A stretch of 14,974 bases of DNA from a virus: UHGV virus genome UHGV-1728491; one strand, given 5' to 3'. Position numbers and translations under genes: made by a program. This document shows positions 1 through 14,852 of this stretch, one piece after another. Under the pieces are notes generated by a model. It made no database searches and was not told the DNA's origin. It saw nothing but the letters and a program-made list of their open reading frames with translations. How positions within the stretch are numbered: position 1 is the first letter of the stretch; every line of letters starts with the position of its first letter.

Positions 1-1130
1 CCTGAAGATGTAGATGAGAAAAATTTTGCTCCACATTCAATCGTTCTATTTATTGCTTGGTCTTTAATAATTTGCGGAAGCGCATCCCATATATCAGTAT
101 CCAATGATGTTGGTTGATACCCATCTCGTGACTGCTTAACATCTGATACTGTTGCATCCCATGTAGTAGTGTCACGCTTAATAACGTACGGAACACTGAT
201 TGTCTGGAAGGTGAGATCGGCAATAACTGAATTATTGGCGTCAGTAAATTCAAACATCTTGTCTGATTTAATAACCGCATTCCCAACCCCATACATCTGA
301 AAGCTGCCTGTATAGGTTATCTTCTTGTTTACAAACCATGTTCCTTCAGGGAAAAAGAATGGTAGGCCTGAGTGAAGGGCTGATATAAGGGCATCTGAAC
401 AATCCTGCCCTGACACACCACCGTACCAAGTAATTGGTTTAGCGATATCAGCAATGTAACCGGCACCACCAGGTCTGCCAAGAGCAAGCAGAACATCCGC
501 AGCAGATCCTGATGTTGGAACGAGCATGATTGGGTTACCATTAGCGTCAAACCCAACGATTTTATTCTTTCTTTGTTCGATACCTGGAAGCTGTGGTATT
601 GCTTCAGCAGTACGTAACGTTCTGTTCAGGTTTGTGGTTGAAACAACATCAACATAGTTTTTTGTAGCCGCATCCTGCGGCTCGCGTGGATCCTTCAAGT
701 TTCTAATGTAGTTGTTCAGCGCGTCATACCAGTTTGCGATACTCGATGGCTTACGTAGCGCCAGCCTGAATAAACTACTTACCTGCTGTATGAGCATAGT
801 CAGCTTATCAAACGCATCCTCGTGCACCTCAGCAAAAAACTTACCCTGGTTTCTAAGATCTGTTTCCTGAGTAACCGGCAGTTCTCGCGATATGGAAATC
901 TGATAACCATTAGCCAGTGCCTTCGACAGAATTACATTGCCGCCGTTATACCCTCCCGCACCAGTGACTGTGTAATCAGTATCAAGAGCCAGCACAGTGA
1001 TATTCTCGTCAGGGTCAATCACCTGCACTACTAGATCAGATTTATTGAAAACCCTAAAGGTATAAGGGAATGATGTCGTAACGCCGTTACCGGTGTATTC
1101 GTTGTGGTCAACTTCGGTTGAGACCGTCAT
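1..1130 (-). CDS. Tailspike / tail fibre protein, first 376 codons only (gene runs off the window start): N-terminal virion-attachment domain followed by the start of a beta-helix receptor-binding/depolymerase-type domain
   Basis: Absent from the ORF track because it has no in-window stop. I checked every minus-strand codon by hand from the ATG (rc of 1128-1130) to position 3: no stop. An in-frame TAG lies upstream at 1182-1184. SD GGAGA (rc of 1137-1141) is 6 nt before the ATG. Translation starts MTVSTEVDHNEYTGNGVTTSFPYTF; residues ~230-270 (WYGGVSGQDCSDALISALHSGLPFFFPEGTW) look like the start of a pectate-lyase-type beta-helix; VKQSRDGYQPT (nt 108-140) matches, from memory, a segment of the P22 gp9 tailspike (LKQSKTDGYQPT). 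The track ORFs 50-292 and 329-556 are other frames of this gene. Confidence 0.8.
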   Translation of the reverse strand, partial: MTVSTEVDHNEYTGNGVTTSFPYTFRVFNKSDLVVQVIDPDENITVLALDTDYTVTGAGGYNGGNVILSKALANGYQISISRELPVTQETDLRNQGKFFAEVHEDAFDKLTMLIQQVSSLFRLALRKPSSIANWYDALNNYIRNLKDPREPQDAATKNYVDVVSTTNLNRTLRTAEAIPQLPGIEQRKNKIVGFDANGNPIMLVPTSGSAADVLLALGRPGGAGYIADIAKPITWYGGVSGQDCSDALISALHSGLPFFFPEGTWFVNKKITYTGSFQMYGVGNAVIKSDKMFEFTDANNSVIADLTFQTISVPYVIKRDTTTWDATVSDVKQSRDGYQPTSLDTDIWDALPQIIKDQAINRTIECGAKFFSSTSS

Positions 1131-1324
1131 GTTAAATCTCCAGATAGTCGCAGCACCCGTTGCGCCGCATATCCGGTCATTCTATTACCTAAAAACCATA
1201 TATGGATAGAAAGCCCATAAATACGAACAGATATTACCTTTCAGGTGATTTGCAAAACGTGCTGGATAGCAAACAAATTATTTGCTACTGTATAAATATA
1301 CAGTTATTACATGGAGAAGATAAG
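1131..1324. promoter_or_regulatory. AT-rich divergent intergenic region, presumably holding promoters for the tailspike gene (minus) and the small plus-strand gene
   Basis: 194 bp non-coding gap between two divergently oriented start codons. Contains TGTATAAAT (1289-1297, extended -10-like) about 28 nt upstream of the plus-strand ATG, inverted repeat AGCAAA-N7-TTTGCT (1268-1286), and palindrome TTTGCAAA (1248-1255). No convincing -35 found; calls are by eye. Confidence 0.3.
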
Positions 1325-1582
1325 ATGCAGCAGTATCACTATCCACTGGAAGACGGATTTACCGAAAGGATTCACACGCCGGGAGGCGTCAGGTCACTGG
1401 TGGAGGGATCGCACTTGATGAAATTACTCCGGGATCTCGATAAGGATGGATTTAATGTCGATGGCCCACTTGCCGAACTGACTGCATTGATTAACTACGT
1501 CACCAGCTCACAGATGTCTATGCAGGATCTGCAAACACATCTCGACTATTGTGCCGAACAATTACGAAAACAAACCCGGTAA
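1325..1582 (+). CDS. Hypothetical small soluble protein (85 aa), orphan gene divergent from the late operon
   Basis: ATG at 1325 is preceded by SD GGAGAAG (1313-1319). Stop TAA at 1580-1582 is followed immediately by the 1590-1605 hairpin. The track's longer 126-aa version (from 1202) extends into the AT-rich promoter-like region with no SD, so I prefer the internal start. Product MQQYHYPLEDGFTERIHTPGG...; no family recognised. Confidence 0.6.
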   Translation: MQQYHYPLEDGFTERIHTPGGVRSLVEGSHLMKLLRDLDKDGFNVDGPLAELTALINYVTSSQMSMQDLQTHLDYCAEQLRKQTR

Positions 1583-1605
1583 ATTTAAAGGCCGCGAAAG
1601 CGGCC
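1581..1605 (-). terminator. Rho-independent terminator ending the minus-strand late operon; also the 3' hairpin for the convergent plus-strand gene
   Basis: Perfect stem GGCCGC (1590-1595) / GCGGCC (1600-1605) with a GAAA loop (UUUC on the minus transcript). On the minus-strand RNA the hairpin is followed by UUUAAAUUU (complement of 1581-1589). On the plus strand the downstream sequence is not U-rich. Confidence 0.7.
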
Positions 1606-1625
1606 TGTGACATGTCACGCTCACG

Positions 1626-1766
1626 TTATGACAAGCCTATGTACCCTGCTACACCAGATAATATCAAAATAACTGCAACAGCAAATTCGCCATCGTCAAT
1701 GATACATTTACGGTTCATAACGCCAAGTGCAACAAGCGCAAACACAACAAGAATAAAAGCAATCAT
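1626..1766 (-). CDS. Small hydrophobic protein, 46 aa, two predicted transmembrane segments; function unknown
   Basis: Hand-translated (below the 60-aa track cutoff): MIAFILVVFALVALGVMNRKCIIDDGEFAVAVILILSGVAGYIGLS, stop TAA at 1626-1628. SD AAGGA is 6 nt before the ATG (rc of 1764-1766) and overlaps the stop of the upstream 824-aa gene. Two hydrophobic stretches flank a charged loop (NRKCIIDDGE). Confidence 0.55.
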   Translation of the reverse strand: MIAFILVVFALVALGVMNRKCIIDDGEFAVAVILILSGVAGYIGLS

Positions 1767-1775
1767 TTCTCATCC

Positions 1776-4250
1776 TTATTGCGGAGTGACATCCTGTGGT
1801 CGCCACCAGTATGTCTGGTTAAACTCTTTCTTCGAACGTTGCTCCATTTTACGCAAATAACCTGGTGAAAAATACTCCTGCATCTGGTTAAAGATCATGT
1901 GATCGAGAGACGCCTTTAAGTACCAGAGATTCGCACCTGGCATCAGACCTTTCCCCAGCTTAACCAGATCACCACCAGTCTGCTCATTCTTCCCTTCCAC
2001 AGCATTTAACGGTATGCCCTGAGCAATCTTCACTACGTCATCAACCAGACCAGCTACCGGGCCAAGCATCGACGCCAGCGCGCCGCTTCCGTACCTAGTG
2101 TGATCTGACAATAAAAAGTCACCGTAAAGGCCAAGACCACCACCTTTCAGTAGAGCACCAAGCCAAAATTTAGCAGTATCTTCTCCTGTCATCTCGCGAG
2201 GATTACGACCAGACGCAAGGTCGTTAAGTTGCTGCGACAAAGCGCCAAGAATGGTCGTACTGGCAATAAACGTCGCAATATATGCCGCACGCCCACCAGC
2301 AGACGGCATACCCATAGCGCGTGACCAGTGACGCATAACCACCGAGATAGGGAACGATTTAAACAGGAAAACACTTCTCGTTAATTCACCTTTCCATGTT
2401 CCACGCTGAATACCAGAACCGGTTATCAGTTGCTCACGTGCTCCCGGTGTAATAACAGCCATATCAACTTCTTCAGTTACGGCACCGAGCAGTTTACGCA
2501 TTGCCTCAAATTTCACGCGTTCAGGCTCACCAAGATGTTTAACTGCTGAATCAGGGATACGCATAATGCTTTCCGGTGTCAGCATCGTATTATTACCGTT
2601 CCCCCAGTCCTCCTGTTGCGCCAGCTTCCATACACTCCAGTCTGTGTCAGTAATCCCTTTGCTTTTCAGGATACGAAAATCAGAGTCATCGAGGCTACGA
2701 AGGTCTGGCGTCCGTGACACTACTTCTCCCAGGCTTCCCATCATGGTTACGCCATAGGCGCGCTTGTGCGCATCTGACCATGCTGTAAGCCCACTGGCAC
2801 GCATTACGGCCGTTGCCGCCCAACGAGACACTGACGGCCCCATATTATCCATCGCCCAGCGGTTAACGCTGCCAAGTAGAGATTCCATCGCCAGACCAGC
2901 GCGGCGCGCCCGCACAAGTTCTGTACGGTTCGTTGGGTCCATAGCTTCAAGCTGGTTGCGGAATAACTGGTTCATTGGAAGGTTGGTAACCTTCGCCGAC
3001 AGATACATGGTTCCAAGATCAGAGAACGATGACAGCAACGCGGATCCGAGTCTGCTGGCAACCAGCCAGTTGCGGATATTGTCAGACCATCGCGCGATGT
3101 GCGGATTCGCTACAGGCTGTGTCTTTCCGGAAATAAAGTTGTACAGATTCTCTGTGTTGTTCGCCAGCCGCTCGACTTTACCGGTTTTACTCGGGTTAGC
3201 TGTTGCCGTTTCTGCCTTCACCTGATCAAGAAGAGAGCGGAAAACATGATCGGGGTTTGGGCCATATGTTTCCACCAGTGCAATATCTTTACTGATACCT
3301 TCCAGGTGACCGACCATGATTTCCCATAGAGAGCGATCGCCATAAAGTTGCTGATATTGCAGATAGGAATCTGCATCTTTGAAATGTATCTGTCGTGATG
3401 CATTACCACGGTTAGCACGTGCGCCGGAAATTCGCATTCCGGTATCAGTAAGCTTATTCAGCCCACCAGTAGCGATCGTGTTATAAGCCTCTCCAAGAAA
3501 TGCAGACAACTCAGCATCGTTCATCAGTTGTCCATCGGCTCGGGTATAATATTTGCGATCCAACTTACCTATAACATCGCTAACCCACTTATCCTTTGAT
3601 ACCGCCCCAACCTTTTCCATAGAATGATGTTGAGGGATCCCCCAGTTTTCGAGATAGCCAATGTCCCCACCAGCATCATTAAACCGGCGGCGCAGTAGCT
3701 CTGTCACTTCTCTCCACGCCTTAGCACCTTTTCTTGCTTTAGCATTGCCAGTATTTTGCCCCCGCATTTCATATACCAGGTCACGTACGCCCGCTTCATC
3801 TTCAAACAGACCAAAAAAGCGAGGATCAACTGCTTCGAATGCCTCCTGCAATTGACTCAATGCATAATCACGGGTGGCTTTTGTTCTGGATTCAACAGAG
3901 AGGAAATTCGATTTACCGTCTGCATTAAAAGCAATAGTACGGTTAAGAGCACCGAGTTTCCCATCAGCCCCTTGATAGCTATTGATAAATTTATCCAATC
4001 TCTGACGTGCGGCTATAGTGAGGGCCACACGACGTTTATTTAATGCCGCTTCTCGCTGTAATTCTTCAGATGCCAATTGTGCTGCTCGATATAGCCGCTC
4101 TGATTCGGAAAGTTGTCGCCACGACATCGGGTCATCACGAGCAATGGAGCGCATATTTCGATAAATGCGGTCTTCAATGTTCTGTATTTCTCGCGCCGTT
4201 AACGTGCGCTGCGCCGCCTGCTGGACCGCTTGTATACATTCCTGTCTCAT
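1776..4250 (-). CDS. Large internal virion / ejection protein (824 aa); C-terminal region resembles the C-terminal part of T7 gp16-type internal virion protein D
   Basis: Long ORF with own ATG (rc of 4248-4250) 5 nt after the stop of the preceding gene; a GAGG 9 nt upstream overlaps the end of the upstream gene. Last gene of the tail/ejection cassette. Gly/Ala-rich hydrophobic C-terminal third (…GGRAAYIATFIASTTILGALSQ…GGGLGLYGDFLL…) resembles what I recall of the T7 gp16 C-terminus. Unverified. Confidence 0.7.
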   Translation of the reverse strand: MRQECIQAVQQAAQRTLTAREIQNIEDRIYRNMRSIARDDPMSWRQLSESERLYRAAQLASEELQREAALNKRRVALTIAARQRLDKFINSYQGADGKLGALNRTIAFNADGKSNFLSVESRTKATRDYALSQLQEAFEAVDPRFFGLFEDEAGVRDLVYEMRGQNTGNAKARKGAKAWREVTELLRRRFNDAGGDIGYLENWGIPQHHSMEKVGAVSKDKWVSDVIGKLDRKYYTRADGQLMNDAELSAFLGEAYNTIATGGLNKLTDTGMRISGARANRGNASRQIHFKDADSYLQYQQLYGDRSLWEIMVGHLEGISKDIALVETYGPNPDHVFRSLLDQVKAETATANPSKTGKVERLANNTENLYNFISGKTQPVANPHIARWSDNIRNWLVASRLGSALLSSFSDLGTMYLSAKVTNLPMNQLFRNQLEAMDPTNRTELVRARRAGLAMESLLGSVNRWAMDNMGPSVSRWAATAVMRASGLTAWSDAHKRAYGVTMMGSLGEVVSRTPDLRSLDDSDFRILKSKGITDTDWSVWKLAQQEDWGNGNNTMLTPESIMRIPDSAVKHLGEPERVKFEAMRKLLGAVTEEVDMAVITPGAREQLITGSGIQRGTWKGELTRSVFLFKSFPISVVMRHWSRAMGMPSAGGRAAYIATFIASTTILGALSQQLNDLASGRNPREMTGEDTAKFWLGALLKGGGLGLYGDFLLSDHTRYGSGALASMLGPVAGLVDDVVKIAQGIPLNAVEGKNEQTGGDLVKLGKGLMPGANLWYLKASLDHMIFNQMQEYFSPGYLRKMEQRSKKEFNQTYWWRPQDVTPQ

Positions 4251-4255
4251 TTAAT

Positions 4256-6058
4256 TTAACCTCTCAAGAAACACGCCACAGCGACATCAAACAGGCTGGA
4301 ATCCTGTATTGCCTGCTCACTTTCCCTGTTCGCTTCATCCAGTACTTCACGCGCACTGCGCGATTGTGGATTACCATCATCATCCAGCACGGTGATTATC
4401 ATGTCAGGTGATTCAAGCAGCGAGTCTTCAGCTATGCGCAGATCAATATCTCCTGCCTGATCTGACATCATTTTTTGTTCTGCCTGTTGCAATATTTTAT
4501 CAGGCTCAAAAGGAGCTACTTCGTCTGGCGTCCTGACCTCTGCTGTTTTATAGAATGAAACAGCCTGAGCATTAAGTTCACTTTCTGCCTGCTGTCTCCG
4601 AGCCAGTTCTGCTCGAGCTTCAAAAAACTGACCGCCAGGCTCGTGCGGTGCCAACGCGTTACGGGAAAATTCCAGGCGTTCTTGTGCCTGCCGGATTCGT
4701 TGATCAATATCGCGAAGTCTGGCCTGTTTATCTGATCGAGCACGAGACAAAGCTTTACCGCTACCGGTTGGCTCTTCTGCAAGAATTTGTGCACGCTGTT
4801 CAGTGAGATTTTCAATAATTCGTTGGCTATTAGCGATTTCAGACTGGTAAACCTGTCTATCTCCACGCGGCAAAAGCTGCGCGGCCTGTTCTTCAAGCAA
4901 CCGATTTTCTATAGCGCGCGCCGTTACTCCATCATCTACAGATGACAGAGCCTCATTAACTTCCTGAGACAGCAGACTCTTGCGCCCAGGAATTTCACTG
5001 AAAGATGCAGACTCAACAATGCTCGCAACGTCTACAGGTCTCCCCTGGCTAACATCAGACATGGCTTTTCGCAGAGCCTGAATGTGCGAATTACGCGAAA
5101 GCACGTTGATCGGAACGCCGGGAGCAATATCAATTTCAGCATGATGAGCGGCATTCGCCGCCAGTGCAGCATCGATATCAACTGGTGAAAAATTTGGTGC
5201 GCTTGTAGGCTCGCCGCGAGAGTTAATAAATCTGCCGACACCACCAAACGCCACCCCAAGAACAGCATCAATAGCAATTGCCTGTCGATCCAACACATCA
5301 TACTGGTTAGCCATTTCGCTATAGCCACCATCACGAAGCGTTTTTGCAGTAAGCCCACGCTGTGCCATACCGAACGCAATATTTGTACCTGCGGCATAGG
5401 CAATATCTGGCGTTGCACGTACTGCTGTTGCTGCGGCGCGTCGCACTGAACTTTCCCCCGTCCGCGCAAGCTGAGCCGCCACACCTTCCGCCAGCGCACC
5501 GCCAGCACGTAACCCGAGGCTCATTGGGATCAGTGTTCCGGCACCAGCAGTAATACCATGCACTAATCCCGCTTCCTGCGCCGTCCTGAAATCAACACCC
5601 TGTGCTGTCAGCCGTTCAAACTCAGAAAAACCCTGTAGAGAAGTTACTGCCGCAGCACCTCCGACCGGACCACCGAGCGTTGTACCGACAACAGCCTGCC
5701 CGCCCATATCGAACAACCCATAAAGGACCTGCCCGGCGGTTCCGGTTGTCGCGGCATCAGGCGTCAGCCGCTTAACCTGCTGCTCTGCTAGTTTTCTCTG
5801 CTCAGCAATGTATGAAACTGAAGTGTCATTGAGCGAGGTGTTTTCGTTAACAAACTGAGCAATCGGGGATACGATTTTATCCATCCCTGCCCATAGCAAC
5901 TGATCTGGCTTTGCCACCAGCCCGGAGTACAAACCAGACAATGCCGCTCCTACAGCATTGTCGAAAAAACCAACATCGCTGTTAAAGCCAGCTGGATTTG
6001 ATGCTGCTTCGTCAAGCTGCTGATTCTGGTTTACTGGATTAAGGCCAAAGTAACTCAT
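4256..6058 (-). CDS. Internal virion / ejection protein (600 aa): Gly/Ala-rich hydrophobic N-terminal half, coiled-coil and acidic C-terminal half
   Basis: Long ORF in the ejection-protein position. ATG (rc of 6056-6058) has GGAG 9 nt upstream and overlaps the 3' end of the preceding gene by 20 nt. Composition is typical of membrane-inserting ejection proteins. No family-level match recognised. Confidence 0.65.
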   Translation of the reverse strand: MSYFGLNPVNQNQQLDEAASNPAGFNSDVGFFDNAVGAALSGLYSGLVAKPDQLLWAGMDKIVSPIAQFVNENTSLNDTSVSYIAEQRKLAEQQVKRLTPDAATTGTAGQVLYGLFDMGGQAVVGTTLGGPVGGAAAVTSLQGFSEFERLTAQGVDFRTAQEAGLVHGITAGAGTLIPMSLGLRAGGALAEGVAAQLARTGESSVRRAAATAVRATPDIAYAAGTNIAFGMAQRGLTAKTLRDGGYSEMANQYDVLDRQAIAIDAVLGVAFGGVGRFINSRGEPTSAPNFSPVDIDAALAANAAHHAEIDIAPGVPINVLSRNSHIQALRKAMSDVSQGRPVDVASIVESASFSEIPGRKSLLSQEVNEALSSVDDGVTARAIENRLLEEQAAQLLPRGDRQVYQSEIANSQRIIENLTEQRAQILAEEPTGSGKALSRARSDKQARLRDIDQRIRQAQERLEFSRNALAPHEPGGQFFEARAELARRQQAESELNAQAVSFYKTAEVRTPDEVAPFEPDKILQQAEQKMMSDQAGDIDLRIAEDSLLESPDMIITVLDDDGNPQSRSAREVLDEANRESEQAIQDSSLFDVAVACFLRG

Positions 6059-8567
6059 TCGGAATATCTCCGGAGAATCTCTGACGCTTCTGTGTCAGAT
6101 TAAGAACAACGGGAGAACCATCATCTTTCAGCAGATAACCAGTACCAAGTTTCACCAGGTACTGACTATCGCCGTAACTTTGCAAACCATACTGACCAGG
6201 CGGTGTTTTTATCCCGGAGCCGACAACTTGTTCATTCCAAGCCTGATTAACCTGCTTATCGAATTGCTCCGCAGACATTCCCCACGGCAAAAGGACATTC
6301 CCCATTCCGTTATAGTCATGCACGCCACCTGTAGCTACGTTAACAGCCTGTTTCCAGACATCATTGTCAATTTCGCCTGATACCACGCCTTTTTTCGCCA
6401 TCACACCAGCGTAATAATCCTTTGCGATCTCGTATGCCATTGATGCCCCCTGAGCGTCACCAGCAAATGCATCCTTCACCATGTCAGAAAACTCAAGGCG
6501 AAGATCAGCATCTTTAGGCATCGGAATACCTTTCGCATCATCAGTACCTTTACGAGCCGCCGCGCCAGCAAGAATTGTCTGCGCAGCGGTTTCAGGAGAC
6601 ACGGAAACATCCGGATTAAACCAGTTTTTTTCTGCCAAAATACCACCTGGCTTATCCATCAGTATCCCGGCAACGGCAGCAGATGGAGCGTTGGCACTGA
6701 TCTGCTGTAGTGCTGACATATACACCTGCCCACCACCAGTGCTCTGCCTGATGGTATCGAGATATGCTGCCTGTTGGGAAACTGGAGCATCACGAAAGAA
6801 AACACCGATCTGATTGGCCTCATCTTTGGAAAAGAACGTCAGTGGAGTGCCATATGACTTAGCAAGGTCACTGACCTGAGCGGCACGCAAGGCAACGCTC
6901 TGTCCAAAGTTATCCTTATTGCTCATGTCGATAGGCTTTGCCTGTCCGGCGGCAAGAGAGAACTGCACAGGATCCGATTGCCGCTGCTTTATCACCTGAT
7001 TTGCAGCCGAAACAACGTTGTCATAAAGAGCTGCGCGTGCCGCATACCCCTCCCCTGTCTCACCAGTATCCGGGCGTAATTGCTCAACATATGCTGTAAT
7101 GCTGCTTGTCGGCATGTTGCGGAAAGAGCCTATATACTGTCCGGCGATTTGCGTATTTCTGAACTCGGTATATCGCAGGTTTCCTTCTCTGACTCCATAA
7201 GCTGCAATAAAATCAGCCTCACCAGGTGGGTTAGGAAATTCAACGCCACGCATATACGCAGATGTCGCATCGCGAACTTGGCTGTCAATCATCGTTTTAT
7301 ATTCAGCCTGCTGCTGCCGACGCAGTTGATCCGCCTGTCGCATAAAACTTGCCTGCGCCTCAGGAGATGCCGCATCGAATGCTGCATTACCGGTATAGCG
7401 TTTGGTGTTGGTTGGAATTGTTGATAAACCAAGTGCTGCACTGACACCAGCAGTTAACTGCTGATCACTGTATGGCTGGCTACCGTTCTCATGATGGATA
7501 ATGGCTGCACAAAGCGCCTTCAGGGTATCAGGATTAGATGCATCGAGAGGCTCATCAGCAGAAACGCCAAGTTGTTCGCACACTGCTTTGATATACGACA
7601 TAGTGTCATTTTTATCAGTAGGCGGTGCCCAGCGATTAATTATCTCGCTGACGGTATCGATACCCTGCCGCTGATACGACATCAGGTTACGCCCTAATGC
7701 ACGAATCCCGTGCTCAGGTGTTTCGAATTTAGCAAATCGACCATCATCACCGGTCTGGCCTACCCACGGATTAGTTTTGCTGTATTCGAGATTTCCTGGG
7801 TTATTGTTGCGTATGCCACGGGCACGCTCGGAAGAGTCATTATCTGCTACAGCACGGCGAGCTCCAGCAGCAGTATCACTTAACTCGCCATTACTTTGGA
7901 TGAATGCGGTCGCATTGTTTGCCGACCACTGGGACAATGCGGCATCAGCAACCTTCTCTTTAAACTCGATTTTCTTGGCCTGTATTTGCTCGTCGCTCCA
8001 GCCATGCGCAACGCCGTAATCCTCAATTTGCTGGAAAGTTTGCTTATTAGCCAATACGTATGCGGCGTTGTCGCCATACAATGCTGCGGCATTTTTACCA
8101 TTGTTCAGCAGCGTCGCCTGAAACTGGCCTTCTTCGTAGGAATTTATTTGCCCTATCTCGTGCCGCCCGGCCTGCGTAGTGAACTGAATGCGCTGCTGCT
8201 GCGCCTGCTGCATGAAAGCATTACGAGCCTGTTCATCCGGCAGCGACATAGCCAGTTGCTCGACCTGGGCATCAAACTGCTGCGTATACTCCTGACCTTT
8301 TCCAATAGCATTTTTCCCTTTCAGGTTAAGCAATCCTGTTTCAGGATTATTCAGCAGATCACTGCTTATCTGACTGAGGTTAAGAGATGCCTCCTGAGCC
8401 AGAGCGATATTGGCACGCTGTTTTGCCTGCCCCAAAACATCAATTGCCTCTGTCCCTGCCCGAACAAAAGCATCACTAATACCTAGCTGAGAAAACGTCT
8501 GCAAGCCTGCTGACTGAACTCCACGACTCTCAACCTGACGTCCGGATACTGTTGGTACGACTGGCAT
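6039..8567 (-). CDS. Large internal virion / ejection protein (842 aa from the preferred start), gp15/gp16-class; contains a conserved hydrophilic NNNPGN block of possible enzymatic function
   Basis: The track gives 867 aa from 8642, but the ATG at rc 8565-8567 has a strong SD GGAGGA (rc of 8573-8578) and forms a TAATG stop/start overlap with the gp14-like gene, so I place the start at 8567. Follows the gp14-like gene as in T7-type cassettes. Conserved-looking block RGIRNNNPGNLEYSKTNPWVG…IINRWAPPTDKNDT at nt ~7443-7820. Confidence 0.65.
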   Translation of the reverse strand: MPVVPTVSGRQVESRGVQSAGLQTFSQLGISDAFVRAGTEAIDVLGQAKQRANIALAQEASLNLSQISSDLLNNPETGLLNLKGKNAIGKGQEYTQQFDAQVEQLAMSLPDEQARNAFMQQAQQQRIQFTTQAGRHEIGQINSYEEGQFQATLLNNGKNAAALYGDNAAYVLANKQTFQQIEDYGVAHGWSDEQIQAKKIEFKEKVADAALSQWSANNATAFIQSNGELSDTAAGARRAVADNDSSERARGIRNNNPGNLEYSKTNPWVGQTGDDGRFAKFETPEHGIRALGRNLMSYQRQGIDTVSEIINRWAPPTDKNDTMSYIKAVCEQLGVSADEPLDASNPDTLKALCAAIIHHENGSQPYSDQQLTAGVSAALGLSTIPTNTKRYTGNAAFDAASPEAQASFMRQADQLRRQQQAEYKTMIDSQVRDATSAYMRGVEFPNPPGEADFIAAYGVREGNLRYTEFRNTQIAGQYIGSFRNMPTSSITAYVEQLRPDTGETGEGYAARAALYDNVVSAANQVIKQRQSDPVQFSLAAGQAKPIDMSNKDNFGQSVALRAAQVSDLAKSYGTPLTFFSKDEANQIGVFFRDAPVSQQAAYLDTIRQSTGGGQVYMSALQQISANAPSAAVAGILMDKPGGILAEKNWFNPDVSVSPETAAQTILAGAAARKGTDDAKGIPMPKDADLRLEFSDMVKDAFAGDAQGASMAYEIAKDYYAGVMAKKGVVSGEIDNDVWKQAVNVATGGVHDYNGMGNVLLPWGMSAEQFDKQVNQAWNEQVVGSGIKTPPGQYGLQSYGDSQYLVKLGTGYLLKDDGSPVVLNLTQKRQRFSGDIPNELLWP

Positions 8568-9112
8568 TATAATCCTCCGGGTAATCTGGTTCCTGCTGCC
8601 GCCCCGATTGGCGCAGGGGTGCTTTGAGTAAACGGACTCCACGTCCCACCAAACATCTGGTACGCACCGTATGCCTTCAGAGGCGCAGTGAGCAATGTTG
8701 TTGCTGCTCCCACATTCCCCTGTTTACGGGCTGAACTGGCTTCTGCTTTATAGTTGGCAGCCTGAACCTGATAACCGTAAGCCTCGCGTTGCGCGTTATT
8801 CACCGTCGTTAGCGAATCAAGAGCGCCAAACTGAGCAGTGTCACCAAATATATCCAGCGCGTTACCTGTAGATAAATCAGCGCCGGTCGCCCCCATTGTC
8901 GCCGCCTGTGTACCAAGCCGCTGTCGGGTCTCTCTGCGCCGTTGCTCAGCTTCAGCGTTACCTCTGTTTATTGCATCATTTGCCTGAGCTGTGGCTATAT
9001 CTGCGTTCGCTTCTGCAACCTTCGAGGCATACTTTCCCTGTTGGTACTGGGTGTATGCCTGAATGCCACTCATGGCGAGCATTGCGCCACCAGCAATAAC
9101 CGGATCGCACAT
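8567..9112 (-). CDS. Internal virion protein B-like (T7 gp14-like), 181 aa
   Basis: ATG overlaps the upstream stop (TAATG at 9110-9114). N-terminus MCDPVIAGGAMLAMSGIQAY has a hydrophobic segment; Ala/Gln-rich middle; C-terminus …APIGAAAGTRLPGGL. Size, position after the gp13-like gene and N/C-terminal pattern match what I recall of T7 gp14 (196 aa). Memory-based. Confidence 0.6.
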   Translation of the reverse strand: MCDPVIAGGAMLAMSGIQAYTQYQQGKYASKVAEANADIATAQANDAINRGNAEAEQRRRETRQRLGTQAATMGATGADLSTGNALDIFGDTAQFGALDSLTTVNNAQREAYGYQVQAANYKAEASSARKQGNVGAATTLLTAPLKAYGAYQMFGGTWSPFTQSTPAPIGAAAGTRLPGGL

Positions 9113-9576
9113 TATTTTCTCTCCATGTGAAATCTGTGGAAATTAAGACCAAGAGCACCATAAGGCGCGGCTTCTTCAAGCCTGAATCCAAGCCAGTGCA
9201 GCCATGCTTTGGCAACATGGTTTCGCTCGTCGACGTAGTTTTCCAGGCGCGGATAAACTGCCAGCATCTGCTGCAATACAGGGCGGCAGTGGCGCAGAAA
9301 TGTCTTCTGATATTTTTCAATACGGCTGGTTCCGACCAGCCAGGGCGTACCATTGCCACCGATCATTGACGCCGGAGATACACCAAACATGGTTACCAGT
9401 TCTCCGTTCGCGAACCCTGACCAAGCCATAGTCGCAGTGCGAAGACCAACACGCAGCGCATCTTCGGTAGTCATCAGCGATACCGCATACAGTTCGTCAA
9501 TATCAGCCTGACGAACATCCGGCAAAATCATCTGAAGATGCTCTTCGGTAGCGGGAATAATTTGAACATCAATCAT
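9112..9576 (-). CDS. Internal virion protein A-like (T7 gp13-like position), 154 aa
   Basis: ATG overlaps the stop of the gp12-like gene (ATGA at 9574-9578). Size and position between gp12-like and gp14-like genes match the gp13 slot. Call is positional only. Confidence 0.45.
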   Translation of the reverse strand: MIDVQIIPATEEHLQMILPDVRQADIDELYAVSLMTTEDALRVGLRTATMAWSGFANGELVTMFGVSPASMIGGNGTPWLVGTSRIEKYQKTFLRHCRPVLQQMLAVYPRLENYVDERNHVAKAWLHWLGFRLEEAAPYGALGLNFHRFHMERK

Positions 9577-12038
9577 CAGAATCCCCCAACAGTAAGGCGA
9601 GGAATAACGGCAAGAACAGACAGCGGCAACGGGTCAAGCTGAAGGATTCTTACACGTCCGTTTTTGCCCCAGTTACTGTCCAGTTTCACTTCTACTTTTC
9701 CGGTAGCGTCATCAACAGGATCATCGTAGAACTCGAATTCACGCTGTGGATATTCGTACCATTTACCGCCGGGCGTAGTCGCCCAGATGCCGCGGCTGGC
9801 ATTCACAACCAGAGTAACGGATGGGATCACCTGTTTTTTGTCCAGCAGCGTTTCCTGTCCGTTAATGTTGATATCCAGTGTTTCGAATTCAGCAGTTATT
9901 GGCAGGCCGATGTGCACTACAGCCCCCGGTGATTCCAGCGTGACGGCACCTCCGGAAACTACTTTCTGTGGTTCCACGTTCGCATCAGAGAGGATGTTTA
10001 CGGTCTGACCTTCAAGATGAGACAAGCCGCCAAATGCCCGGCGCGCCATCTGCCAGTTCGTGGTGGCCACATTCCTGAGGGATGGCGGGACGTTCCTGTT
10101 AGCACGAACCACTACAGCGGTGTTGCTGGTTACAGAAATAATGTCGCAACGTAATTCTTTTGCGCCAGTATCAGGATCAGTTCCGGTATAAGGGAACTGT
10201 AGTTGCGCACCGACATCACTACTGGTGAAGTACGCACCACCAGAAATACTGATTGTATATTCCGCGCGGTAATCCCATTCGCCAGAACCACCAGTGATGG
10301 TCATCGTTCTGTCAGACGTATTTCTTCCATCATAGCTAAGGCCAGAATCAACAAAGAAAGCATCTTCATCGCTGGTAAATAAACGGCTGGACAGTCGCTC
10401 GATGTATCTCACTTTTTGCCCGTTAACGGTTCGGTTAACGACGAAATACACCGCATCTTCATTGCCTTCGCTGATACTGCATGTGCTTTCATATTTTCCG
10501 GTACTGGATTGTGGTGCCCATGCAAAAACCTGCTGATCACGCAAATAGGTCATCACCAGTAATTTACCGTCATCACGAATGCAGAAGGCGCTGGAGTAAG
10601 GGACAATCGAGAAGCACCAGTCAACAATGCTGTGCTTCTGAAAAAGATGATTGGCAAGGATAGTCAGGTCGTTCCCCTGATAGCCGTCAACATCGAATGA
10701 ATAGGCCAGATCACGGACAACACTGCCTTTCTCCTGGACGAACAGAGCAATATTCGCCACGGCAATTGGTGGGACGTTGCTTGAGCCATTTGATCCCTGA
10801 GAGCTGAATGCAAATGATGATGGGGTTAACACTTTGTTCTGGTCGCCGGTGATGACGTACTCACCTCCGGAAGTCAGTGCCACCAGCGAACCGACATCAA
10901 TCAGGTGGCGGATCTCATTAACCTGACGCCCGGCATAGGTGTAGATAATTCTGTCGTCATCCTGCGTAGGATTGCTTTTGCCAAAATCCTTATAATCCCC
11001 AGTACGGCTGGCCCAGATAGTCTGAGGGAACGCAGTCGATGCGGCGAAGTAAAGACGTTGTTGATAATAAACAACAGTGCCAGGATAACCATTAACACTG
11101 TTCCAGGCATATTTAGCCCATTTATAGCTGGCATTATCCTCGCCAACTATCTGCGAAGGGATATAGGAAATCACCTCGGCAGTTGCAGTAGTTCCATTTG
11201 CAGCAGTGATACGGGCAATGCCAAAACCACTGTGCAGATATTCCCACTCAATGCCAGTGTCATCATCACCGGATCCGCCCCAGCCATCCCATGATGTGCC
11301 TTCTGTATGCGAAGGGCGCAAAGTGCCTGTTTTGCCTGCTGTAACGGCGCGATAGTAGTTACTGTCTGCACGGCGAATATCGCCAATCGACGTACTCTTA
11401 CTGGTTTCCCATACCGGTACTGAATCCACTGCTGGCTGTTCCAGATAGAACAATTTTCCTACCTGCTCCGCGCCAAAAATAGAGGCGCTTGCCGTTAACG
11501 TAATTGTCCCGGTGCTGGCGCTGGCATAAACCGTCACTGACTCGTCAATATTGATATCTTCAAATGGCCCGTTCTTCGTTACTACATCAACCAGTTGCCA
11601 GTTGTCATGCGCATAGCGGCGCAACTCTTTCGGCGGGTATGCCGGATGAACCAGCGTAAGCACGTCTGCGCTTTGCGTGAATTTAATTCGGAACAGATCG
11701 GCTTCAGTATATGGCGTGGCAATTTCATAAATAACATTGCTGCTGTTCAGCACCAACGCACCATCTTTGATAACGCGCATGTACTGGTGTCCGAACTCCA
11801 GAGCATAGGTCTGAACCGTCGAGAACTGGAACGGGATCAGGCGGCATTTCCGATTTGGGTATTTGGCGGCACCGACAAAACGCGTACCAGGTCGATTCTC
11901 AACGCCGCCATACTGCCGCACGATAAAGTTATCGCACTTGCGCAATGCCACCTGGTACTTCGCCATGTCGATACGACCGTACAACGACGGTCCAATCTCA
12001 CCACCGGCAAAGCTGGGCTGTATCCAACTGATAGCCAT
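9576..12038 (-). CDS. Tail tubular protein B / nozzle protein (T7 gp12-like), 820 aa
   Basis: Long ORF. ATG (rc of 12036-12038) overlaps the upstream stop (TGATG), with GAGG 8 nt upstream. Several segments (N-terminal MAISWIQPSFAGGEIGPS…; central …WASRTGDYKDFGKSNPTQDDDRIIYTYAG…SGGEYVITGDQNKVLTPSSFAFS…) parallel the T7 gp12 sequence as I recall it. Follows a ~200-aa gp11-like gene. Confidence 0.7.
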   Translation of the reverse strand: MAISWIQPSFAGGEIGPSLYGRIDMAKYQVALRKCDNFIVRQYGGVENRPGTRFVGAAKYPNRKCRLIPFQFSTVQTYALEFGHQYMRVIKDGALVLNSSNVIYEIATPYTEADLFRIKFTQSADVLTLVHPAYPPKELRRYAHDNWQLVDVVTKNGPFEDINIDESVTVYASASTGTITLTASASIFGAEQVGKLFYLEQPAVDSVPVWETSKSTSIGDIRRADSNYYRAVTAGKTGTLRPSHTEGTSWDGWGGSGDDDTGIEWEYLHSGFGIARITAANGTTATAEVISYIPSQIVGEDNASYKWAKYAWNSVNGYPGTVVYYQQRLYFAASTAFPQTIWASRTGDYKDFGKSNPTQDDDRIIYTYAGRQVNEIRHLIDVGSLVALTSGGEYVITGDQNKVLTPSSFAFSSQGSNGSSNVPPIAVANIALFVQEKGSVVRDLAYSFDVDGYQGNDLTILANHLFQKHSIVDWCFSIVPYSSAFCIRDDGKLLVMTYLRDQQVFAWAPQSSTGKYESTCSISEGNEDAVYFVVNRTVNGQKVRYIERLSSRLFTSDEDAFFVDSGLSYDGRNTSDRTMTITGGSGEWDYRAEYTISISGGAYFTSSDVGAQLQFPYTGTDPDTGAKELRCDIISVTSNTAVVVRANRNVPPSLRNVATTNWQMARRAFGGLSHLEGQTVNILSDANVEPQKVVSGGAVTLESPGAVVHIGLPITAEFETLDININGQETLLDKKQVIPSVTLVVNASRGIWATTPGGKWYEYPQREFEFYDDPVDDATGKVEVKLDSNWGKNGRVRILQLDPLPLSVLAVIPRLTVGGF

Positions 12039-12643
12039 CAGGACAACCTCGCAATGGTAAACTCGTCAACCGGTGGCTGTGGTTCCTGTGATTCATTCTG
12101 GCTATGCGAGCCAGCACTAAGAATCACGCGATTGTACATATTGAGGGCAAACGTACCGAGGTCTGCATTCCCAGTCAGCGCCATGTTAATAGCTGCCGCA
12201 AGACGCCAGGCCAACGCCTCCATAAAAATGGCATCAAACATGTTCACATCTGTAACGCGAGAGACATACTTGAGCCATGCCTGAGGCTGGTCTGTGTAGA
12301 TCAACTTTCCTGTTCCGTTGGTGTCTGCACCAACTTCGTACTGAACGCGCATTGCTGCTGTTGGATTGCGTACACCAGGAAGCATAATTTCAGTAATGCG
12401 CAGACAATCGGACGGGTACTGGTATGCGTATTCCCAGTCTGGCGGCGGATTGTTCGTATCTGCAAGCGTCACGCGTTTGGTAGCAAAGTTCCAGTCAAAA
12501 TCAGAAAGCACAGCATCACGGCAGGCCTCAAAGTGCAGCGAACATTCCCCCGCTTCCTTGCTGGCTTCCGTCAGGCTGTTAATGCTGCGGCTGTTGCCAA
12601 TATTGGACAGCGCACGATTACAGATCTCTACTACAGAGGCCAT
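12038..12643 (-). CDS. Tail tubular protein A / adaptor (T7 gp11-like), 201 aa from the preferred ATG
   Basis: The track starts at a GTG (12646); the adjacent ATG (rc of 12641-12643) has SD GGAGGTG 5 nt upstream and overlaps the upstream TGA stop (TGATG). About 200 aa immediately upstream of the gp12-like gene, as in T7 (gp11 196 aa). N-terminal pattern (…VVEICNRALSNIGNSRSINSLTE…) loosely matches recalled gp11. Confidence 0.6.
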   Translation of the reverse strand: MASVVEICNRALSNIGNSRSINSLTEASKEAGECSLHFEACRDAVLSDFDWNFATKRVTLADTNNPPPDWEYAYQYPSDCLRITEIMLPGVRNPTAAMRVQYEVGADTNGTGKLIYTDQPQAWLKYVSRVTDVNMFDAIFMEALAWRLAAAINMALTGNADLGTFALNMYNRVILSAGSHSQNESQEPQPPVDEFTIARLS

Positions 12644-12966
12644 CACTCACCTCCGTTACCGTACAGAGTTTCAGCCGCTGATTTTTCTACATCCCCGGAA
12701 ACAGGAGCGATCGCCATATCAGTGATCTGCAGATCGGCGCTGCGATTAACGCCATCGTCAGTTTCTCTGGCAGACAGGCCTCGAATAACAGCCTTTGCAG
12801 TTATCATCACTTCTGTTCCGACGCCCTGAGGTTGCGCCTTCAACTTATTCAATGTGTCGTTATTAAGAGTGATGCACAGCCCCCACGGGTATTCATCGCG
12901 AGTTCTGGTTTCTCCGCTCTCATCCTGGTAGCTGTCAGTGCCGGTTTTGAGGTTTACGAGTTCCAT
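12643..12966 (-). CDS. Hypothetical virion-associated protein (107 aa from the preferred ATG); C-terminus carries the SAAETLYG motif shared with the scaffold-like ORF
   Basis: ATG at rc 12964-12966 has SD GCAGGAG 5 nt upstream. The GTG start used by the track (12972) has no usable spacing. First gene of the translationally coupled chain leading into the gp11-like gene. Confidence 0.55.
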   Translation of the reverse strand: MELVNLKTGTDSYQDESGETRTRDEYPWGLCITLNNDTLNKLKAQPQGVGTEVMITAKAVIRGLSARETDDGVNRSADLQITDMAIAPVSGDVEKSAAETLYGNGGE

Positions 12967-12978
12967 ATACACTCCTGC

Positions 12979-13000
12979 AATAAAGGGGCCGAAGCCCCTT
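12979..13000 (-). terminator. Intra-operon stem-loop with UUCG tetraloop followed by a U-rich tract; candidate partial terminator or attenuator
   Basis: Minus-strand RNA: AAGGGGC-UUCG-GCCCCUU (complement of 13000-12983), then UAUU, then the SD of the next gene. Lies in the 50-nt gap between the 111-aa and 107-aa genes. Confidence 0.45.
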
Positions 13001-13016: not shown

Positions 13017-13352
13017 TTACACGCCCAGTTCTTTACGCTTATCTGCGATCTTCTCGCGGAGCGTTTCGGCTTTGGCGTTATGGTGTGGCTTCTCGTTAAA
13101 GAGCAATTCGTACTCTTCACGGAGCTTATCCAGTTCACCATCATCTGACACATCGTTGATGATTTTGGTGCTGGTTGCTGCCATTGACACCTTTCCTGCA
13201 ACTTTTGCTTTTGCCTGTCTGGCTGCATCGTTAACAGGTTCCAGTGCGCTACCAGGCTCACCTTCGTATTCGATTTCTGCCCCCTCCGGCCACAGAGTGT
13301 TATGGATATGAGAGAGGCGCAGAACGCGGTATCTTGGTTTCTCACCTGACAT
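13017..13352 (-). CDS. Hypothetical small acidic virion/assembly protein (111 aa from ATG; 114 aa if the GTG at 13361 is used)
   Basis: ORF between the 145-aa gene and the hairpin. ATG at rc 13350-13352 is preceded by AAGGTG. The alternative GTG start (13359-13361) lies 1 nt after the upstream stop. C-terminal half is charged and probably helical (…DDGELDKLREEYELLFNEKPHHNAKAETLREKIADKRKELGV). Confidence 0.5.
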   Translation of the reverse strand: MSGEKPRYRVLRLSHIHNTLWPEGAEIEYEGEPGSALEPVNDAARQAKAKVAGKVSMAATSTKIINDVSDDGELDKLREEYELLFNEKPHHNAKAETLREKIADKRKELGV

Positions 13353-13362
13353 CGATATCACC

Positions 13363-13800
13363 TTAACCAGTTACTTTTGAGCGGATCGGATACGGCGTAT
13401 TGGCATCAACATCAAGACTGATACCAGCAGTGAATTCGCCAGCCGTTAGTGGGCCAGTTGCGACGGAGTAGTTAACACGCAGATATCGCTGAACACCGGC
13501 AGGCACCTTTGCAGAAACAACTCGTTTACCTGCTGTCAGGGCGGTCTTTGCCAGTGCGCCACTATCATAAATAGTGGTCCATGAGCTGTTATTCTCACTC
13601 GTCTGCAACTGGATGTTTACAGTTGCATCACCGCTTGCCGCGGCGGCTGTGTTAACCAGCGCCCAAAACTCAAGCGGGTAACCCACGCCGATATCACGAC
13701 GTTTTCCGTCAATTGGACCGAGATCGATTACGTCAGTAGAAGCCGCGGTATTCGTAACCGCCTGAGCTTCGGAGAACATCAACAGTTTGTCGGTGATCAT
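13363..13800 (-). CDS. Hypothetical beta-rich protein (145 aa), candidate capsid decoration or minor head protein
   Basis: ATG at rc 13798-13800 with SD GGAG 9 nt upstream. Thr/Ser/Ala/Val/Gly-rich composition with no hydrophobic helices (Ig-like feel). Immediately downstream of the putative capsid gene. Function inferred from position only. Confidence 0.45.
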   Translation of the reverse strand: MITDKLLMFSEAQAVTNTAASTDVIDLGPIDGKRRDIGVGYPLEFWALVNTAAAASGDATVNIQLQTSENNSSWTTIYDSGALAKTALTAGKRVVSAKVPAGVQRYLRVNYSVATGPLTAGEFTAGISLDVDANTPYPIRSKVTG

Positions 13801-13851: not shown

Positions 13852-14838
13852 TTACACCACGCGGGCTTCTGTTTCCAGAAGCGCATCAGTCTCACGGATT
13901 GGTACACCACGGAATGAAGTCCACCACTCGCCTTCTGTCTCTTTTACGCTGATCGCCAGAGATGTTTTCTCCAGAGATTGCAGATCAAGAGCCTGGCCTA
14001 CAGTGCGGTTCATGTAGAACACCGGGCGGCCCATGCCACGGTTTGGAATGCGATGCAGTGCTTTAACCATCAACTTCGCAATATTTGCTGCAGAGGAAGG
14101 TTCTGAAAGATTGCTGACATCGATGTTTGCAATGCGAACAACATAACGCCAGTCACGCAGAGCAAGCCCGTTGTCCCATTTGTAATGGGTACGGTAGCCT
14201 TCGTACTTGCCGCCATTCGCATCTTCCAGTGTCACCTGGCCTTTATCTTCCATCTGGATGCCAGCCTTCTGCCCTTTCGGGAAGATGCCATGCACGGTGT
14301 TTTCGCCCCACACCACTAACCAGATTGAGGTGTTATCTGTACCCGTGCCACCAGCATCAATGATGTTCTGAGCATTACCCGCAGACAGGCTGGAATAGCG
14401 GGAGGACAGTCCCATAAACTGCTGAGGGTTAACGCTGGAATCACCATAAAACAGTGTCTGCGCCATCTGCTGATTCATCGCTTCAATAAATGCGCGGTCT
14501 TCAGACAGGCGGAACTCGGCGGTATTGCCGTTCAGATCAGCCAGTGACTTATCGACTTCAGCATAGGTTTCCAGCATGCCAACGGAATCGGTTACCTGCA
14601 CTGTGGTTGATTTGCTTGGCTGTACGCCATAGTTCAGCAAACGCCAGGTAGCTGAAGGTAAACCAGAACGAATGGTGGTTCGGTGTCCGGTAGGAAGGTT
14701 CCCTTCGACAAAAGGCATATCCTGAAGGATCGGGTTAGTTTGACCGAGAAGCTCGATAATCTTATCGACTTTCCCGTTTGGATCGACGCGCTTACCCCAG
14801 TCAGCCAGCGTTAGCGCAGTTAAGCCTTTAACAGCCAT
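13852..14838 (-). CDS. Putative major capsid protein (328 aa from the second ATG; 330 aa if the ATG at 14844 is used)
   Basis: Complete ORF of typical HK97-fold capsid size, directly downstream of a scaffold-like ORF and upstream of the tail genes. SD GAGAGG sits 8 nt before the ATG at rc 14836-14838 but only 2 nt before the ATG at rc 14842-14844, so the second ATG is preferred. No diagnostic motif recognised; the call is from size and synteny. Confidence 0.55.
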   Translation of the reverse strand: MAVKGLTALTLADWGKRVDPNGKVDKIIELLGQTNPILQDMPFVEGNLPTGHRTTIRSGLPSATWRLLNYGVQPSKSTTVQVTDSVGMLETYAEVDKSLADLNGNTAEFRLSEDRAFIEAMNQQMAQTLFYGDSSVNPQQFMGLSSRYSSLSAGNAQNIIDAGGTGTDNTSIWLVVWGENTVHGIFPKGQKAGIQMEDKGQVTLEDANGGKYEGYRTHYKWDNGLALRDWRYVVRIANIDVSNLSEPSSAANIAKLMVKALHRIPNRGMGRPVFYMNRTVGQALDLQSLEKTSLAISVKETEGEWWTSFRGVPIRETDALLETEARVV

Positions 14839-14852
14839 TGTCATTTCCTCTC

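Follow-up and report, generated by a model that had tools for sequence, protein, structure and literature searches.

Does a run of genes whose stop and start codons overlap, one junction after another, mean that those genes are translated as a linked series? The question is raised by the virus genome stretch UHGV-1728491, the whole of which (14,974 nucleotides, nt) is called the window here. In the window, seven consecutive genes on the minus strand, gp10-like to gp16-like, are linked by six overlapping junctions. A sequence-only reading of this DNA had proposed such a chain, and had taken it to imply tight translational coupling of the adaptor, nozzle and ejection proteins. The chain is indeed present, but it represents the ordinary, already annotated tight layout of a group of phages, which is inherited and not special to the window, and this overlapping layout probably lets ribosomes pass from gene to gene.

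The seven members of the chain are given below in the order of transcription, with window coordinates, lengths in amino acids (aa) and products as assigned by similarity.

12643..12966, minus strand: gp10-like, 107 aa, capsid staple/decoration protein (Pfam PF21628, E = 1e-51), the first gene of the chain
12038..12643, minus strand: gp11-like, 201 aa, tail adaptor (tubular protein A; phrog_394 tail protein, E = 7e-87)
9576..12038, minus strand: gp12-like, 820 aa, tail nozzle (tubular protein B; phrog_376)
9112..9576, minus strand: gp13-like, 154 aa, internal virion protein A (phrog_308 internal virion protein, E = 9e-63)
8567..9112, minus strand: gp14-like, 181 aa, internal virion (ejection) protein B (phrog_418 internal virion protein)
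6039..8567, minus strand: gp15-like, 842 aa, virion protein with a lytic transglycosylase/lysozyme-like domain at residues about 249-398
4256..6058, minus strand: gp16-like, 600 aa, virion protein and homologue of epsilon15 gp16 (phrog_1145, residues 1-600 aligned to profile positions 1-594)

Every junction was read directly from the minus-strand sequence.

12641..12645, minus strand: junction 1, gp10 to gp11, TGATG (GGT GAG TGA / ATG GCC), in which the stop at 12645-12643 shares its A with the ATG at 12643-12641
12036..12040, minus strand: junction 2, gp11 to gp12, TGATG (TCC TGA / ATG GCT)
9573..9578, minus strand: junction 3, gp12 to gp13, TGATGA (TTC TGA TGA / ATG ATT), in which the stop at 9578-9576 and the ATG at 9576-9574 share 1 nt
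9110..9114, minus strand: junction 4, gp13 to gp14, TAATG (AAA TAA / ATG TGC)
8565..8569, minus strand: junction 5, gp14 to gp15, TAATG (TTA TAA / ATG CCA)
6039..6058, minus strand: junction 6, gp15 to gp16, a 20-nt overlap, with one C absent between 6060 and 6059

The first five junctions, from gp10 through gp15, are thus all 1-nt overlaps, three of the type TGATG and two of the type TAATG. The sequence-only reading had described junctions 1, 2, 4 and 5 in just these terms. It had, however, called the gp12/gp13 junction a 4-nt ATGA overlap, whereas the first in-frame stop makes it a TGATG overlap of 1 nt. The nozzle gene ends in tandem in-frame stops, TGA TGA, the second of which (9575-9573) overlaps the gp13 ATG as ATGA and is probably the reason why that string was seen.

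The window matches Escherichia phage phiV10, a phage of E. coli O157, at 97.4% identity across 96% of its length, while Enterobacter phage Tyrion and Salmonella phage epsilon15 match it at 75-81% identity. These three temperate podophages belong to the genus Uetakevirus. The gene order across the capsid, tail and ejection genes is the same as in the phiV10 and epsilon15 type genomes, and on these similarities the window is identified as the minus-strand late structural operon of an epsilon15-like podophage. The phiV10 record (NC_007804.2, PhiV10p13-p21) contains the same genes in the same order, and its 1-nt overlaps p13/p14/p15/p16/p17/p18 are already present in GenBank/RefSeq. The same is true of the epsilon15 record (NC_004775.2, gp10-gp18), in which the 1-nt overlaps gp10/11/12/13/14 are already annotated. 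Unlike the window, epsilon15 has a 12-nt gap between gp14 and gp15, as well as 1-nt overlaps at gp15/16 and gp16/17.

The sixth junction differs among the three genomes, with an overlap of 20 nt in the window, 4 nt in phiV10 and 1 nt in epsilon15. The 20-nt overlap named in the earlier reading is present in the window sequence, but only because a single C has been lost between 6060 and 6059, such that CCGCAATGA of the relatives (ATGA, 4-nt overlap) has become CCGAATGA. In phiV10 the corresponding stretch reads ATATTCCGCAATGAGT (CAA TGA, with a 4-nt overlap with the ATG), and in the window ATATTCCGAATGAGT. The loss carries gp15 past its TGA and changes the C-terminus from ...DIPQ* to ...DIPNELLWP*, so that the last 6 residues are unlike those of the relatives. 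The 4-nt ATGA overlap was found in all 44 of the 44 fetched relatives that carry the window's gp16 allele, and neither IMG/VR nor the GTDB representative genomes contain the exact variant string. Region 5990-6130 occurs in 314 of 5,426 complete E. coli genomes, nearly always as a single chromosomal copy, and none of the 314 carries the 6059/6060 deletion (best match 99.3%, with one gap). The 20-nt overlap was therefore rejected as a feature of the family; it reflects either a mutation of very recent origin or an error in sequencing or assembly.

The remaining geometry was compared across 90 loci, in which orthologues were called by blastp. The search for related loci in IMG/VR gave only relatives that are 98-99% identical, and the divergent ones were obtained by tblastn against phage records. 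In the following, negative values denote overlaps and positive values gaps. Where a Uetakevirus locus has both genes of a pair, the junctions gp10 to gp11, gp11 to gp12, gp12 to gp13 and gp13 to gp14 are almost always -1; this holds for epsilon15, SPN1S, BUCT554, 65FD and Tyrion (nozzle identity 87%-91%), and the GenBank annotations agree. A spacing of -1 was counted in 86 loci for gp11 to gp12, in 85 for gp12 to gp13 and in 83 for gp13 to gp14. At the gp14 to gp15 junction, 59 loci have -1 and 21 have +12, while gp15 to gp16 is -4 in 42, -1 in two and -20 in the window only. The stop codons alternate between TGA and TAA across the relatives, and the geometry is unchanged. Within the genus, the exception is Klebsiella phage Kp4865-1 (57% nozzle identity), with -1, +1 and -8 at gp11 to gp12, gp12 to gp13 and gp13 to gp14.

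Such a run exceeds chance. In annotated phiV10, 6 of the 45 co-directional junctions are -1 and five of these are consecutive; a run of at least five arises by shuffling with P = 2e-4. The -1 junctions of phiV10 are concentrated in the gp10-gp17 module (5 of 7, versus 1 of 38 elsewhere; Fisher P = 1e-4), as are those of epsilon15 (6 of 7, versus 1 of 34; Fisher P = 1e-5), and outside this module both genomes favour -4 overlaps. For comparison, about 15% of co-directional pairs overlap in most groups of prokaryotes (PMC6728339).

The comparison with homologous clusters shows the -1 chain to be kept across Uetakevirus and replaced by other geometries in distant relatives and in T7. In MPK9 (Pseudomonas), BPP-1 (Bordetella) and KL4 (Burkholderia), the genes for the adaptor, the nozzle, a GNAT-like internal virion protein (IVP) A, IVP-B and the large virion proteins are also tightly packed, at spacings of -20 to +12 nt. 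The individual junctions are -4, -20, -16, -1, -4 and -1 in MPK9; -1, +11, +5 and -4 in BPP-1; and +8, -11, -1, +7, -1 and 0 in KL4. The products of T7 genes 10-16 are homologues or analogues that are encoded in the same order, and a terminator separates the capsid gene(s) from the tail genes. In contrast to the window, the T7 cluster contains no overlaps, its spacers being 23, 80 (with promoter phi13), 4, 6 and 26 nt, and no gp10-type staple gene lies between the terminator and the adaptor. Because distant relatives vary and T7 lacks overlaps, the uniform -1 relay is, on this comparison, an inherited trait of the genus that is not demanded by the protein machine itself.

The products of the chain bear directly on what coupling could mean. 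The T7-style labels of the earlier reading (adaptor, nozzle and ejection proteins) hold for the chain, except at its first gene. The 107-aa protein, on sequence and structural matches, is the epsilon15 gp10 capsid staple, and is thus neither a tail nor an ejection protein: PDB 3J40_N (epsilon15 gp10) aligns from its residue 1 with E = 2e-21. The 3J40 entry holds 7 gp10 chains per asymmetric unit, which gives about 420 per T=7 capsid (PMC12391199); copy numbers are taken here from the chain counts in PDB entries (3J40 and the 8CK1/9EFK matches). The 201-aa protein matches PDB 8CK1_E, 'Connector Protein' (E = 7.6e-27), and the 820-aa protein matches 8CK1_A, 'Tail Nozzle' (E = 1.5e-216), with 12 chains of orf17 and 6 chains of orf18 in 9EFK. 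The tail tubular protein profile phrog_9239 was also matched, and the adaptor and nozzle homologues are adjacent and in the order of the T7 supergroup. On these similarities both assignments are firm.

Among the ejection proteins, the 154-aa gp13-like protein gave no Pfam or PDB sequence match, and its GNAT-like label derives from the HHpred note in the epsilon15 gp13 record and from PMC4819975. The 181-aa protein passes the Pfam PF24072 T7_gp14 model (31.2 bits versus a cut-off of 27, E = 2.5e-7). Residues 1-832 of the gp15-like protein align to positions 1-764 of the 764 positions of phrog_992, and its residues 249-398 match Gp29 in PDB 9VVP (E = 4e-38) and the endolysin in 7Q47. The tail injection transglycosylase profile phrog_7182 matches it as well. 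The transglycosylase domain is carried here by gp15, whereas in T7 it sits in gp16. No PDB match was found for the 600-aa gp16-like protein.

A Shine-Dalgarno (SD)-like motif is located inside the last codons of the upstream gene before each downstream start, often in Gly-Gly or Gly-Glu codons. The predicted free energies (dG) of the duplexes with the 16S 3' end range from -6.4 to -15.4 kcal/mol, versus a background mean of -4.2, and lie below the 5th percentile at three of the six starts (gp11, gp12 and gp15). The motifs are listed below, together with that of gp10, the first gene.

12975-12972, minus strand: SD of gp10, GGAG, dG = -7.4, downstream of the hairpin at 12979-13000
Just upstream of the gp11 start, minus strand: SD of gp11, GGAGGTGA, motif GGAGGTGAG, dG = -15.4, the strongest
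End of gp11, minus strand: SD of gp12, GCGAGG (GAGG), dG = -9.7
End of gp12, minus strand: SD of gp13, GGGGGA, dG = -8.4
End of gp13, minus strand: SD of gp14, GGAG only, dG = -6.4
End of gp14, minus strand: SD of gp15, GGAGGA, dG = -9.5
End of gp15, minus strand: SD of gp16, GGAG only

The predicted accessibility of the ribosome-binding sites (RBSs) fits coupling loosely. It is low for gp11 (3rd percentile), gp12 (19th), gp13 (37th) and gp16 (36th), and high for gp7-gp10 and gp17, which are preceded by spacers (67th-98th percentile).

The elements that may delimit a common transcript of the chain are the following.

12979..13000, minus strand: terminator-like hairpin between gp9-like and gp10-like, AAGGGGC-TTCG-GCCCCTT, with a UUCG tetraloop, followed by T-rich TTTATT
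1776..4250, minus strand: gp17-like, 824 aa, homologue of epsilon15 gp17
1766..1626, minus strand: small open reading frame (ORF) of 46 aa, with two predicted transmembrane helices
1606..1589, minus strand: terminator-like hairpin at the downstream end of the operon

The hairpin at 12979-13000 would mark the upstream edge of the transcript segment that holds the chain. It was overlooked by the consensus terminator scan, because its stem runs into the T tract, and was found by direct reading; the epsilon15 record has a rho-independent terminator annotated at the matching position. The phiV10 record carries p21 and an annotated terminator where the window has the 46-aa ORF and the 1606..1589 hairpin. 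In both records, one terminator precedes gp10 and another follows the operon, and terminators are annotated only at these two flanks. Internal promoters or terminators that would split the chain were also considered and seem unlikely: consensus scans within the chain gave 14 promoter-like sites against a shuffle expectation of 17.1, and 18 terminator-like sites against 13.2 +/- 3.6, with no excess in either case. The scans and the annotations are consistent with one mRNA of about 11 kb. The gp17-like gene belongs to the same operon but lies outside the overlapping chain, since it follows gp16-like after a 5-nt spacer; it has its own SD (dG = -7.0) and an RBS at the 98th percentile of accessibility.

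Since SDs are in place, promoters and terminators are not in excess within the chain and coupling of overlapping genes has been published for E. coli, the most likely explanation, which we regard as probable rather than firm, is a late-operon layout with SD-assisted termination-reinitiation on one polycistronic mRNA. One long minus-strand mRNA would read through the hairpin after gp9, would carry gp10, gp11, gp12, gp13, gp14, gp15, gp16, gp17 and the small membrane protein, and would finish at the terminator close to 1600. A ribosome that reaches the UGA or UAA of one of the five 1-nt overlaps, or of the ancestral 4-nt overlap at gp15/gp16, would stop there, stay on the mRNA and restart at the overlapping AUG, aided by the SD in the last codons of the upstream gene. 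As a second contribution, the same ribosome would melt local structure at the next RBS, most plausibly at gp10/gp11. In consequence, ribosomes would cover the mRNA of about 11 kb continuously, whereby Rho polarity would be avoided (PMC12548453), and the parts of one tail and ejection machine would be synthesized in a coordinated but non-equimolar manner.

Coupling was strict or strong in 4 of the 5 overlapping E. coli pairs that have been tested (PMC6728339, PMC10666635). It is lost by a spacing of about 20 nt, and short overlaps are enriched among the subunits of heteromeric complexes (PMC6728339, PMC10666635). The coupled bacterial pairs resemble the junctions of the window in that they are co-directional and joined by TGATG/TAATG or ATGA, with the SD inside the upstream 3' end, and their products are likewise subunits of one heteromeric assembly (PMC6728339, PMC10666635, PMC12548453). 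The tested enzyme pairs comprise two subunits, whereas five to six links are found here, with very unequal copy numbers of about 420 : 12 : 6 for gp10, the adaptor and the nozzle. To read tight coupling into the chain is reasonable in the light of what has been published for -1 and -4 overlaps of E. coli (PMC6728339, PMC10666635). Any coupling of gp10 to gp11 cannot be equimolar, though, because about 420 copies of gp10 face 12 of the adaptor.

Several observations weigh against this explanation. Each downstream gene has its own SD, so that de novo initiation is possible, and for gp14 and gp15 the prediction is of an accessible RBS (66th and 90th percentile). The copy numbers show that any coupling would not be 1:1, and the -4 pair bioBF of E. 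coli is uncoupled (PMC6728339). The 12-nt gap at gp14/gp15 characterizes the epsilon15 (Salmonella-type) lineage, distant relatives range from -20 to +12, and the gaps of T7 extend from 4 to 80 nt. Moreover, the gp10 gene is wholly missing in about 14 IMG/VR relatives whose nozzles are at least 98% identical (L006, L010, L014, L015, L028, L044, L045, L048, L049, L051, L064, L068 and L078 among them), and these initiate gp11 de novo. In such loci gp11 begins 56 nt after gp9 and is preceded by the same UUCG hairpin and a GGAG. The gp10 to gp11 link is therefore dispensable. The staple protein itself is thus not universal even among very close relatives.

Several of these observations also speak for genome compaction, in which the overlaps are a neutral or space-saving end-point of deletion bias in a phage genome of limited size, each gene initiates at its own SD and translation of the upstream gene matters little. 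The geometry is not kept beyond the genus, and the passage from a 4-nt to a 20-nt overlap by a 1-nt deletion was evidently tolerated, if the deletion is real. In addition, TGATG and TAATG would be held by selection on the stop and the start alone, whereby their conservation is no proof of coupling. Against compaction as the sole explanation, most of the tested overlapping pairs of E. coli are coupled (PMC6728339, PMC10666635), and a ribosome that terminates 1 nt from an AUG occupies its RBS, so that initiation must alternate with termination and some interaction is unavoidable. The -1 junctions are gathered in the tail and ejection module, with -4 preferred elsewhere in the genome, and the predicted RBSs of gp11 and gp12 are buried. 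On balance, compaction alone appears unlikely as a full account, and SD-assisted termination-reinitiation is preferred to it.

A more elaborate proposal would see the -1 relay as a tuned translational cascade, in which a hairpin at gp10/gp11 acts as a step-down valve of ~35-fold between the 420-copy staple and the 12-copy adaptor, and the later links hand ribosomes on at a nearly constant rate, yielding tail and ejection parts at 12:6:~10. We consider this proposal rather doubtful. Were it true, the relatives that lack gp10 would be natural rewirings of the gp10/gp11 valve. In any event, a 420-copy capsid protein and a 12-copy adaptor joined by a 1-nt overlap would offer a convenient natural test of how far the outputs of 'coupled' genes may differ.

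The valve also figures in a further explanation, in which coupling would operate mainly through RNA unfolding, with upstream ribosomes opening the SD and AUG for fresh 30S subunits and with gp10/gp11 as the step-down point. The predicted hairpin, CGGAGGUG...GCCUCUG, would pair the gp11 SD with gp11 codons 2-4 and enclose the stop and the start in its loop. Its predicted energy is -16.8 kcal/mol (z = -2.6), and 3 of 200 shuffles fold equally well; although gp11 has the strongest SD, the predicted accessibility of its RBS is only at the 3rd percentile. Most relatives have sequences compatible with the pairing (86.5% of the cells in the inner helix are paired), and the unfolding model is established for other operons (PMC12548453). 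Conversely, the 13 distinct sequences of this hairpin contain no compensatory pairs and do not exceed the shuffle control (55/500), which also counts against this element of the favoured mechanism. The structure was derived from the window itself, the minimum-energy fold differs in the epsilon15 lineage, and a ribosome that terminates at a 1-nt overlap covers the very RBS that it would have to unmask (PMC12548453). The SD-sequestering hairpin is accordingly treated as a thermodynamic prediction only, and unfolding as the principal mode of coupling seems improbable.

The relatives are mosaic. When loci L003-L082 are compared with window positions 4256-9576, prophages that are nearly identical from gp7 to gp13 carry divergent alleles of gp14, gp15 and gp16-gp17, variously combined, and the mosaic breaks coincide with the gene junctions of the chain. 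In prophages whose nozzles share at least 98% identity, the breaks lie at gp13|gp14, gp14|gp15 and gp15|gp16, and in the presence or absence of gp10. The junction string of gp13/gp14, CACATGGAGAGAAAATAATGTG, is common to both divergent gp14 alleles. From this pattern it might be argued that the junction strings serve as homology linkers for the exchange of modules between prophages, the overlap geometry being a by-product. Selection on intact proteins, however, would by itself place breakpoints at gene borders, irrespective of the junction sequence; the breakpoints were located here at the level of genes, and linkers would leave the specific -1 geometry unexplained. This explanation is considered highly improbable.

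The chain depends on the choice of start codons, and the earlier reading had preferred internal starts to the longer ones of the ORF track. Comparative evidence independent of the overlap argument agrees with that choice. The gp15 start is ATG 8567 (MPVV...) and not GTG 8642: in more than 20 relatives, including the lineage with the other gp14 allele, epsilon15, BUCT554, 65FD and Tyrion, the homologous ATG is preceded at a distance of 3-36 nt by an in-frame stop, with no alternative start between. A third C-terminal allele of gp14 has three stops in the gp15 extension frame, and the GTG at -75 (8642) is confined to the window's own lineage. The 75 nt between the two candidate starts contain nine polymorphisms. 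Seven of these are synonymous and two non-synonymous in the gp14 frame, whereas the frame of a longer gp15 would give two synonymous and seven non-synonymous changes. The long start was ruled out by these stops and this pattern. For gp11, the GTG located 3 nt upstream of the ATG (12646) is lost in every TAATG variant, and for gp10 the GTG 6 nt upstream (12972) is missing in BUCT554 and 65FD; PHROG profiles, like the gp10 of 3J40, align from residue 1 of the short forms. The starts of gp10, gp11 and gp15 are hence well supported by comparison. The view that the chain is partly an artefact of start choice, with GTG 8642, 12972 and 12646 as the real starts and some overlaps long, can be set aside as scarcely credible, even though GTG 8642 has a moderate SD-like match (dG = -6.3) and the extension frame is open in the window's own lineage.

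Beyond the quality of annotation, the chain has little significance. The by-products of the analysis are comparative support for the start codons of gp10, gp11 and gp15, a correction of how the gp12/gp13 junction is classed, the recognition that the 107-aa gene encodes a capsid staple, and the tracing of the 20-nt overlap to a 1-nt deletion or error seen in the window only.

The genes upstream of the hairpin at 12979-13000 are the following.

14844..13852, minus strand: gp7-like, major capsid protein (Pfam PF20911 GP7, E = 2e-149)
13800..13363, minus strand: gp8-like, Bbp16-like (Pfam PF21190, E = 5e-47)
13352..13017, minus strand: gp9-like

In T7, the terminator Tphi follows capsid gene 10 and is analogous in position to this hairpin. 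The location of the gp10 staple gene (12643-12966) downstream of the putative terminator is odd for a 420-copy protein. Together with the Bbp16-like protein (13363-13800), which has the fold of the BPP-1 cement protein, gp10 makes two candidate capsid stabilisers in one phage.

At the other end of the operon, epsilon15 gp17, the homologue of the window's gp17-like protein, has been placed in the T7 gp16/IVP-D class (PMC4819975). Window positions 1-1600 contain small ORFs on both strands, and the match to phiV10 starts only at 554. The counterpart of this region in the phiV10 record includes an anti-repressor/Bro-N gene, and the window seems to be different there.

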